A stretch of 39,105 nt of DNA from IMG/VR virus record IMGVR_UViG_2609459852_000013. One strand, written 5' to 3'. The position numbers are program-made. Positions within the stretch are counted from its first letter, which is position 1. Every line of letters begins with the position of its first letter. Source of the stretch: a virus. Taxonomy: Duplodnaviria > Heunggongvirae > Uroviricota > Caudoviricetes. Shown here one piece after another: positions 12,001-15,000 of the stretch.

Positions 12001-15000
12001 ACTGGCTGTTACGCCACATTAAATCCTGCCAGTGGCCTCATGGTGACTACCATCACAGCGAAACCGTCATACATCGTTACGGTACCGGTGCAATGGTGTT
12101 GTGCTGGCACTGCGACAACCAGCTGCGTGACCAGACTTCCGAATCACTCGAGCAACTTGCTCATCAAAACCTGTCAGCATGGATGATTGACGTCATACGC
12201 CATGCAATGAATGGCACGCAGGAGCGCGAATTATCGCTGGCTGAATTATCCTGGTGGGCGGTCTGCAATCAGGTGGCGGACGCGCTACCAGAGGCAGCAT
12301 TACGTCGTTCTCTGGGGTTACGTGCGGAAAAAATTCGCTCAGTATACCGCGAGAGCGACATCGTGCCGGGAGAGCAGAGTGCCACCAGCATGCTGAAGCA
12401 GCGCACAAAAAATATTGCGCCGCTGCTTCACGCCCACCAGCAAACCCCGCCACAGGAAAAGACGGTGGTCAGCATTGCCGTTGAGCCGGAGTCTCCGGAA
12501 TCTTTCATGAAACGACCTAAACGTCGCCGCTGGCTTAACGAGAAATACACGCGCTGGGTTAAGACACAGCCGTGTGCATGTTGTGGAAAGCCTGCTGATG
12601 ATCCCCACCACTTGATAGGCCACGGTCAGGGTGGAATGGGTACTAAAGCGCATGACCTCTTTGTGTTGCCTTTGTGCAGAAAACATCACGACGAGCTGCA
12701 TGCGGATACCGTGGCATTTGAAGAGAAGTATGGCTCCCAGCTGGAGCTGATATTTCGTTTTATCGATCGTGCGCTGGCAATAGGCGTATTGGTGTAAGTG
12801 GAGAACGAGCATGAACCTTGAAGCCTTACCAAAATATTACTCCCCAAAATCTCCAAAATTGAGCGATGACGCACCGGCGACAGGCTCGGGGGGTTTAACA
12901 ATTACGGATGTGATGGCTGCGCAGGGGATGGTGCAGTCGAAAGCACCGCTTGGGTTTGCCTTATTCCTGGCAAAAGTTGGTGTTCAGGATACTCAGTTTG
13001 CTATTGAAGGTCTGCTCAATTACGCGATGGCACTGGATAACCCGACATTGAACAAATTGAGTGAAGAAACCCGGTTACAGATCATCCCTTACCTTGTGAA
13101 TTTTGCCTTTGCTGATTATTCCAGATCTGTGGCAAGTAAGGCTTGCTGTGGGCATTGTGCAGGTACGGGATTTCATCATGTATTATGTGAAGTGGTGAAA
13201 TATTCCAGTGGTGGGGACACTGTCATCAAAGAAGAGTGGGAGAAGAAACTATGTCAGCATTGTAATGGCAAGGGAAAAGTCAGCACAGCGTGCAGAGGGT
13301 GTAAGGGTAAAGGCATTGCCCTAGATGAAAAAAGAACCCGATTTCATGGTACACCAGTTTATAAGGTCTGTGGGCGTTGTAATGGACATCGGTTTAGCCG
13401 TTTACCGACCACGCTGGCACGACGTTATGTCCAGAAGCTGGTTCCCGGTTTAACTGATTATCAGTGGTACAAAGGATATGCAGATGTCATTGATAAACTG
13501 GTAACAAAGTGCTGGCAGGAAGAATCGTACGCTGAGACCCAGCTGAGAAAAGTGACGAGATAAATGATTTTCGCGGAAGATGTCTACATGATGCTTGCAT
13601 TTTTCACAAAACATGGATAGAGTTATCTCAATAAGGGGGGTGTGTGCCTGCCGTTAAAGGGGGCTTCGACCTGCGATAATTAAAGGTACAGTTCTGGATG
13701 AAAAAGCCCCGACTTCATGGTAAGCCAGTTTGCAAGATTTGCAGGCGTTGTAATGGAAAGGAGTTAGCCGTTTACTGGCCACGCTGATGTGGCTGCATAT
13801 CCAGGAGTTGGTAACAGATAAGGCTGATTAGATAATTCTTTGCTACATAACAGCAAGGCATCATATAGAATATTATAACTTTGACTGTTAGCATGGATTA
13901 TACCCGCTTCCCTTGTTGGCCTTCCTTCTGTCGATGATTCTATCCATAATGAACCAGTAAATTTTGACATTTTATATGTTGCGAATTCTTTGGCGTTAAC
14001 TGGAATTTTTATGTCATTTAAGTCCATTGTGTATCCATCTTTTTTTATTTTATTGGCAAAGCAAATCTTTATATCGGAGATTGATGCATCGACACTTATC
14101 TGTGAATAGCTATCTGGTGAATTAAAGATAAACAAACAAAAAAATAACATATGAAAAAACAATTTCACAAATGCCTTCCTGTTTTGTAAATATATTGCTA
14201 AGTTTCTTGGTGATTTATATGTTACAAGGCAAGAGATGTTGCTGGATGATAAAAAAATAACAGTAAGGTTATTTGTGGTTGGCGGGCTGTCTTTGTTTGG
14301 TTAGATTTAGCTCTGGATACCGATAGTTAACATTATATGCCATAATTAGTATTGTATGCGGATATTGTATAATGGTTATTACCTCAGTTTCCCAGACTGA
14401 TGATGTGGGTTCGATTCCCGCTATCCGCTCAGGGCACTTATCAAGGTATATATACCTTACAGCGCTGGCGTTTTTTTTCGCGGGGATGGTTTCAGATATC
14501 TCATTGCTCCCTCGAACTATAACAGAGACCAGTTATAGTTTCAGCGCGGTTTTTTTCAATATAAGGATGGCGCATTGTTGGAAGAGAGTTTCGGGAATTA
14601 TCCTGGAGAGACAGATGATGCGCCATCCTTATGTTGTATAAAAATGTGAGATAAGCCGAAGAGCAGGACTGTCAGGTATACATATAAATAGACGAAAGCT
14701 GTAACGTATTTATTCGTTGATTAATATGTCTACAAAAGACATCCGATATCTCGAATTCTATTTAATACGTTGAGTGCTATTTGAGTTTTTACCGCCCTCC
14801 CGGGCGGTTTTTTTGTGAGCTTAAAAAAGAATTGCACATTGGATTTGTAAATAATCTAATGTTGTTTAACAAAAGATGAAAGCAGCGCTTGACTCTATTG
14901 AATTAGTATTGTTATTTCAACTATATCAATGTGTTCAGGTTGTTGCGAGAAACTATGGTTGATAAAGAATTACTCAGAAATTCTTCATTGTTTGTTGCGT

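Follow-up and report, generated by a model that had tools for sequence, protein, structure and literature searches.

Among the accessory genes (morons) of lambdoid phages are stx, which lies downstream of Q and the late promoter PR' in phages of the 933W type, bor and lom in lambda, and the porin genes nmpC and lc between Q and the lysis genes. Here we describe a gene of this kind in the caudoviricete prophage sequence of IMG/VR record IMGVR_UViG_2609459852_000013 (39,105 nucleotides, analysed at full length and hereafter called the window), namely the minus-strand open reading frame (ORF) at 13764-14168, which encodes a pre-protein of 134 amino acids (aa). Like the classical morons, it is a single accessory gene of atypical composition, located between Q and the lysis and late genes and presumably of benefit to the lysogen; it runs opposite to the late operon as bor and nmpC do, but, unlike stx, is not placed for Q-antiterminated late transcription, and it shares neither sequence nor fold with any of these genes. 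The explanation that we favour overall, with a probability of roughly 0.55, is that it is an exported single-gene moron serving as a lysogenic-conversion factor.

The described gene with which it can be compared most directly is SL1344_1896 of Salmonella (SL1896 = STM1967 = STM14_2387), a 387-bp gene for a 128-aa 'hypothetical protein' with 40.8% GC, located between yedF and fliE (Martínez-Flores et al. 2016, PMC5122947). The intergenic DNA that precedes SL1896 is able to drive a cat reporter, its expression clusters with Salmonella pathogenicity island 1 (SPI-1) and needs HilD, HilD does not bind its regulatory region, HilA, InvF and FlhDC are not involved, and genome-wide data point to repression by H-NS (PMC5122947); in addition, StdEF expression down-regulates SL1896 along with SPI-1 and flagella (PMC6173445). 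Neither paper mentions E. coli relatives of SL1896, and the main texts of the literature gave no match for the accessions of the family proteins, for STM1967 or for STM14_2387. That SL1896 belongs to the same family as the window protein was verified, since its size and locus tags match and the published primer SL1896-Rv1 maps within the family coding sequence of locus L003; the primer SL1896-Fw2 maps to the yedF 3' end of loci L014-L017. Like the window protein, SL1896 has a signal-peptide-like leader, two invariant cysteines and a Y/E/G/W-I/L signature within about 117-128 aa, and like the window gene it stands alone, was acquired horizontally, and has a low GC content and an upstream regulatory region of its own. 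Unlike the window gene, it occupies a fixed chromosomal site with no prophage and keeps its native C-terminus, and its HilD-dependent, SPI-1-linked expression uses Salmonella regulators that are absent from E. coli hosts.

The ORF was found exactly where the original prediction had placed it, and its setting, AT-rich DNA between Q and the tRNA cluster and antisense to the late genes, was borne out by the GC profile and the neighbouring genes. GC is 0.31-0.37 over 13750-14350 and 0.45-0.57 in Q and the DUF968 gene on its left, and the codon-position GC of the domain part of the ORF is 0.34/0.37/0.29. The stop-free run around it spans 178 codons, a length that none of 2000 dinucleotide-preserving shuffles of this 34% GC stretch reached (mean 66, max 147). 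By the Nei-Gojobori method, the ratio of nonsynonymous to synonymous substitution rates (dN/dS) in the mature domain was 0.27 against a 64%-identical allele and 0.17 against a 48%-identical allele. Because the frame is longer than in all shuffles and is under purifying selection relative to the diverged alleles, we regard 13764-14168 as a genuine gene with high confidence. Across nine near-identical copies, no variable site occurs in the 279-nt mature domain versus 12 in the surrounding 589 nt, a pattern that is suggestive only because the variable sites are linked.

A word-indexed search returned near-identical copies only. Exhaustive phmmer comparison with 1.84 billion representatives retrieved seven non-repeat relatives of 106-134 aa plus a frameshifted copy of the ORF itself, the E values of the window protein being 1.5e-7 to the Salmonella member P0009 and 5.5e-41 to 5.8e-15 to the E. 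coli members; two other matches, P0004 and P0008, are long repeat proteins that accumulate score and were discarded as spurious. The Salmonella loci were matched by tblastn at E 5e-5, and a profile built from 10 members recovered the Salmonella islet proteins at E 1e-38 to 1e-43. In all, this profile search collected 26 proteins, none with a Pfam domain; all the named sources are Salmonella enterica, and the E. coli proteins come without a source name. E. coli holds at least four other alleles with about 37-64% identity, three of which were traced to the same antisense Q-to-lysis position in other lambdoid prophages. In a 24-sequence alignment, C36, Y46, E61, G72, I76, C108 and L112 do not vary and W75 hardly does, and the window protein has all of these residues.

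Pfam, PHROGs, NCBIfam and PADLOC were run on the ORF, and the first three also on all 24 family members, and these curated libraries gave sub-threshold chance matches only, including phrog_30351 at E 0.014. One such match, Pfam PF07692 (Fea1), hit one of the 24 members with 14.6 bits (E 0.017), below the gathering threshold of 25 bits, and was rejected. A profile sequence search of the PDB found nothing under E 1.7, and a likeness to YebF and to the colicin M immunity protein (Cmi), prompted by similar cysteine positions, failed a profile similarity test. The original prediction that no family could be recognised thus stands for the curated libraries, but not beyond them, as an uncurated family exists and includes SL1896/STM1967. 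Judged from its sequence relatives, this is a small family restricted to enterobacteria, with SL1896/STM1967 as the chromosomal Salmonella member. Relatives were absent from the GTDB species-representative genomes, and the wide family alignment search gave no viral matches.

The window protein is very probably exported. Its N-terminus reads MK, a 13-residue hydrophobic stretch (best 10-residue Kyte-Doolittle mean 2.45) and NSPDSYS|Q, and a heuristic (-3,-1) rule gives one candidate cleavage site only, SYS|Q, after residue 22. By the same kind of heuristic, a hydrophobic leader followed by small-residue cleavage motifs (AYA|D, AAA|R, VVA|H) is present in all full-length family members, so the signal peptide that had been claimed for this ORF is a near-universal pattern of the family, which has two invariant cysteines as well. 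A bacterial lipoprotein of the Bor, Cor or Llp type was considered and rejected: the lipobox [LVI][ASTVI][GAS]C is absent, the sole leader cysteine, C11, is preceded by F-F, and the leaders of the relatives have no conserved cysteine.

For the mature part, single-sequence AlphaFold2 (AF2) modelling was poor (predicted local distance difference test score, pLDDT, 53) and was replaced by a model based on the 24-sequence alignment, which reached a mean pLDDT of 77.7 and scored 90 or more at 68 residues. Confidence is high in the core (residues 21-115) and low in the leader and at residues 118-134, and the tail is modelled as disordered. The predicted topology is strand 22-26, helix 30-42, strands 46-48, 53-55, 59-66, 69-77 and 86-91, and helix 95-113. 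Each predicted helix carries one of the two invariant cysteines, and the model fits a helix-helix disulfide formed in the periplasm. Small two-layer alpha+beta domains (KA1/TBP-like) such as DUF302 (1q9u), Francisella Flpp3/DUF3568 (6pny) and the BamC N-domain (2laf) share with the model a beta-alpha-beta(4-5)-alpha order in which the two helices lie on the same side of an antiparallel sheet.

The C-terminus has a history of its own. The original prediction had noted that the last codons lie antisense to a remnant of a Q gene, which was confirmed for residues ~116-134, and had suggested that the protein may be altered there; the tail is indeed foreign, but the refinement is that the domain itself is intact. 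Compared with the L006 prophage, which carries the 64%-identical allele, the window has in common the Q end with about 60 bp downstream of it, and the ORF with about 150 bp upstream of it. DNA homology between the two breaks at about codon 115, where the L006 protein stops (…QLSSRS*) and the window ORF continues through the antisense remnant (…ELSNQPYLLPTPGYAATSAWPVNG*). The relatives terminate 2-8 residues past the last conserved leucine, L112. Compared with them, the window protein lacks about 1-3 native residues and carries about 19 foreign ones instead, and as the native loss is this small, the domain is considered intact rather than damaged. The rearrangement that left the 150-bp Q remnant would thereby have swapped the last 1-3 native codons and the stop for 19 (or 14) unrelated codons. 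About 2450 E. coli genomes contain ydfT-type Q genes with internal parts that match the remnant at 13681-13830; as even the best matches are only 73-77% identical, a parent was not found among them and the ancestral arrangement is not reconstructable. Among near-identical copies the tail is polymorphic, with P116S, W130stop (which yields the 129-aa protein found in the annotation of several complete genomes) and a frameshift fusion (P0002). We consider that the protein is probably still functional despite its chimeric tail.

The same facts could be read as the mark of a decaying relic, in which the rearrangement removed the native end and the terminator, the product is unstable or unmade, and the ORF persists because the event was recent. 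The chimeric tail with the loss of the native stop would agree with such decay, as would the three kinds of tail variant, the N-terminally truncated calls of 82-106 aa that many draft assemblies contain, the defective look of the prophage in a near-identical genome (an internal stop in the integrase gene and several gene fragments) and a candidate antisense late promoter that aims into the gene. However, the signal peptide and the domain are intact in 18 of 18 complete genomes, the mature domain is without substitutions while the flanks vary, the ribosome-binding site is intact, and the loss comprises 1-3 native residues only in a family whose C-terminal length varies anyway. Decay is therefore an unlikely account of the gene, and the reading as an exported moron is the one that we pursue below.

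This reading draws on where the family members reside. The window allele was found in 18 of 5426 complete E. coli genomes and any allele in 28; all 18 carriers are human isolates, the records opened being from Japan, Mexico and Mali (diarrhoeal). The Q 3' end is present in 172 genomes and the cassette in only 18, the slot being filled elsewhere by other alleles or other cargo. In another lambdoid prophage, the 64% allele directly follows Q and is convergent with it, while the 48% allele and another one of about 50% identity are antisense in Stx-phage-like late regions, which have the order Q, methyltransferase, family gene, (PmrD-like gene), nanS-p, DUF1378, DUF826, holin S and R. In these Stx-phage-like prophages, the slot of the family gene is the stx position of Stx phages. 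The prophage alleles, of the P0003 (WP_201478754.1, 116 aa), P0005 (114 aa) and L027 (112-114 aa) types, are 48-64% identical to the window protein and share with it the antisense slot and, in part, the upstream DNA. They differ in that they keep the native C-terminus, ending 2-4 residues past CxxxL(S/T), have no Q remnant, and have TfpB-like and methyltransferase genes, a PmrD-like gene and nanS-p as neighbours. The occurrence of independent alleles at the same antisense Q-to-lysis position of other lambdoid prophages, including the Stx-phage-like ones, upholds the earlier view of this position as a moron site, and we read the window gene as a single-gene lambdoid moron, cargo outside the phage's own programme.

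Outside this slot, other members adjoin a reverse transcriptase gene and an insertion sequence (IS), a TauD gene or a P22-type antirepressor gene, and the Salmonella plasmid members adjoin a chaperone-usher operon with a Dam methylase gene, or a GrlR-like gene. In many S. enterica subspecies a family member is the only gene between yedF and fliE. Among 50,697 sequenced phage genomes, the family was absent except for one 1.5-kb Salmonella fragment.

Two observations concern the Stx-phage-like loci (L008-L012). The 48% allele at 7950-8294 has an internal GTG after GGAGG, from which a 97-aa leaderless protein is called, and an ATG 17 codons upstream that gives a 114-aa form with a signal peptide and no obvious Shine-Dalgarno sequence, so that exported and cytoplasmic products are conceivable. 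The PmrD-like gene (PF11183, 107 aa) at 6798-7121, found in the Stx-phage-like prophages only, shares its strand with the family gene, from which it is separated by about 880 bp on the upstream side, and likewise runs against the late genes.

These distributions also bear on whether the product is a periplasmic superinfection-exclusion or anti-phage factor, which would block DNA entry or wall penetration by incoming phages. The gene is prophage-borne, would by its orientation be expressed independently of the late operon, encodes a putatively exported product and sits in a known hot spot for accessory genes, and the nearest named viral structural neighbour of the model, a weak match, is an uncharacterised phage 'lipoprotein', all of which would suit such a role. 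Set against this, PADLOC gave no match for the ORF, close members of the family also occur away from phages, on plasmids and, in most Salmonella, at a constant place in the chromosome, the expression of the Salmonella member follows the invasion genes and not prophage functions, and the family is nearly absent from sequenced phage genomes. We consider exclusion improbable as the role of this protein.

For the lysogenic-conversion reading, the following course can be proposed. The pre-protein would be exported by Sec and cleaved after Ser22, and a disulfide formed in the periplasm would staple the two helices. Transcription in the lysogen would start from the gene's own AT-rich upstream region, run against the late transcript and be under host rather than phage control; by analogy with SL1896, the upstream region is probably silenced by H-NS and relieved by host regulators. 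The mature domain would most likely bind an envelope or host-derived partner through the exposed face of the sheet and the conserved WIE...G..(R/K) hairpin, binding being preferred over catalysis because this domain of about 93 residues has no catalytic or cofactor motif. As a lysogenic-conversion factor the protein may then act in colonisation or protection. A host-association or envelope-protective binder, as distinct from a phage-exclusion factor or an enzyme, is our tentative choice of role, at not quite even odds.

Several points weigh against the reading as a functional exported moron. Identity between SL1896 and the window protein is about 26-32% only. The native C-terminus and whatever followed downstream of it are gone, the tail is unconstrained, as its polymorphism indicates, and one of its variants is frameshifted. 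The allele is uncommon, with 18 carriers among 5426 complete E. coli genomes. A conserved partner gene was not found: the neighbours (PmrD-like, GrlR-like, chaperone-usher, Dam and reverse transcriptase/IS genes) each occur in a single context. Consensus scans of three allele loci gave no sigma-70 promoter or clean terminator, and the candidate PR', if constitutive, would send transcripts antisense through the ORF.

A narrower variant of the binder idea is an orphan immunity protein or inhibitor directed at a periplasm-acting enzyme, such as a type VI secretion system peptidoglycan hydrolase, a colicin M/pesticin-like bacteriocin or a host lysozyme; the size, export signal, putative disulfide and stand-alone mobile distribution are typical of such inhibitors, and the domain is small and non-enzymatic, and we hold this identity to be as improbable as phage exclusion. 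A chance ORF with no gene, for which one could cite that the allele is annotated as 'hypothetical protein' only and that curated families give no match, is practically discounted by a length beyond 2000 of 2000 shuffles, a dN/dS well under 1, a conserved E. coli and Salmonella family with invariant residues, and a confident AF2 fold.

Under the preferred reading as an exported conversion factor, the window gene is a candidate fitness or virulence factor, because the Q-to-lysis slot carries Shiga toxin and conversion genes and the hosts are human diarrhoeal isolates. A formerly anonymous E. coli prophage ORF is now tied to SL1896/STM1967, a gene known for its expression with the SPI-1 regulon, and the family is supplied with an alignment, a confident fold model and conserved residues for mutation, so that a function found for either the window protein or SL1896 would transfer to the other and to the plasmid copies. 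As an element it is ordinary, namely a moron for a small exported protein, and its family is described in no library. It is possible, though doubtful, that the window gene and its relatives on prophages, plasmids and the Salmonella islet together make up a novel family of mobile periplasmic effector-binding proteins that are silenced by H-NS and have a defined part in protection or colonisation, for example a new class of inhibitors against a host or competitor enzyme that attacks the envelope, or a periplasmic support for invasion or adhesion machinery. If so, non-Stx lambdoid prophages of human diarrhoeal E. coli would have in their stx slot a virulence-associated conversion gene that has so far gone unrecognised and is homologous to an SPI-1-co-regulated Salmonella gene. 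Should no function emerge for either the window protein or SL1896, the gene would simply count as a further small orphan moron, the usual result.

The features of the locus are collected in Table 1. Intact Q is preceded by a DUF968 gene, and to the right of the ORF the plus strand carries a tRNA cluster at 15580-15829 and, further on, TerB, holin, M15 endolysin and terminase genes. As these late genes are on the plus strand, the ORF runs antisense to their transcription.

Table 1. Features in and around the 134-aa ORF of the window (positions in the 39,105-nucleotide sequence).
Feature	Positions	Strand	Basis or remark
Intact late-gene antiterminator Q, convergent with the ORF	12811-13563	+	Pfam Antiterm, E 1.5e-51
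Candidate late promoter PR', TTGCAT-17 nt-TAGAGT	13595-13623	+	Within a block conserved downstream of Q in another prophage; putative
Degraded ydfT-type Q fragment (internal to 3' part, frameshifted), older	13681-13830	+	Aligns to 3' part of intact Q
Coding sequence of the 134-aa pre-protein	13764-14168	-	GTG start, TAA stop; RefSeq label hypothetical protein WP_064745597.1
Foreign C-terminal tail, residues 116-134 and stop, read antisense through the Q remnant	13764-13823	-	L006 homology ends here; tail variants; pLDDT <50
Conserved mature domain, residues 23-115, strand-helix-five strands-helix	13824-14102	-	Invariant columns; AF2 pLDDT >90 for most of 21-115
Predicted Sec signal peptide, residues 1-22, MKLFFHMLFFCLFIFNSPDSYS|Q, without lipobox	14103-14168	-	Hydrophobicity and (-3,-1) heuristic; same layout across the family alignment
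AT-rich upstream region, partly conserved with the 64%-identical allele	14169-14320	-	-10-like TATAAA (conserved) at 14214-14219; candidate promoter
Strong Shine-Dalgarno GGAAGG	14174-14179	-	5 nt ahead of GTG; read directly off the sequence
tRNA-Gly(CCC), divergent from the ORF, cassette boundary	14358-14430	+	Not common to the L006 allele locus

With regard to expression signals, the consensus scan gave no strong minus-strand sigma-70 site in 14169-14320, and downstream of the ORF a weak terminator-like hairpin at 13728-13709 is the only one. On the plus strand, a strong terminator-like hairpin (ACCGCCC-TCCC-GGGCGGT followed by T7) at 14791-14808 is the first clear one after the candidate PR'; if this is tR', transcripts made constitutively from PR' would extend over tRNA-Gly and, antisense, the ORF. 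The signal-peptide codons at 14103-14168 hold T6 and T7 homopolymer runs, and N-terminally shortened calls (82, 87 and 106 aa) occur on about 125 contigs of public assemblies, for which homopolymer frameshift, sequencing error or start choice are possible reasons; the complete genomes checked were all intact.

Between tRNA-Gly and the tRNA cluster lie fragments of two genes, a TfpB-like N-terminal piece at 14955-15170 and a frameshifted DNA methyltransferase C-terminal piece at 15176-15440; intact TfpB-like and methyltransferase genes come after the family gene in other prophages. ARAGORN called three adjacent tRNAs in the cluster at 15580-15829, CAT, Arg-TCG and Arg-TCT, a trio that we take to resemble the ileZ-argN-argO cluster of Stx phages. 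In the RefSeq annotation of a near-identical genome the CAT tRNA is called tRNA-Ile and the Arg-TCG gene at 15663-15739 is unannotated.

Elsewhere in the window, a second Q-family antiterminator gene lies at 8759-9283 on the plus strand, which brings the Q-related sequences to three including the remnant, and is followed by a two-gene minus-strand island of 32-37% GC. The island comprises a 159-aa protein at 9289-9768 that PADLOC matches weakly to RexB (E 0.0015) and a DUF6731 protein at 9784-10698 (304 aa), and it could be a RexAB-like abortive-infection or exclusion pair. In the near-identical genome L013 (NZ_AP041814.1, 1108389-1153493), the integrase gene beside yccA has an internal stop, and in the window, tail-fibre, baseplate, second DNA-circularisation and second tape-measure genes at about 32250-39105 are opposite in strand to the head and tail genes, which suggests a mosaic or defective prophage that arose by inversion or consists of two abutting prophages. 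Toxin genes of the cryptic-prophage type, dicB, relBE and hokD, are located at 2564-2752, 4744-5215 and 11148-11303, respectively.

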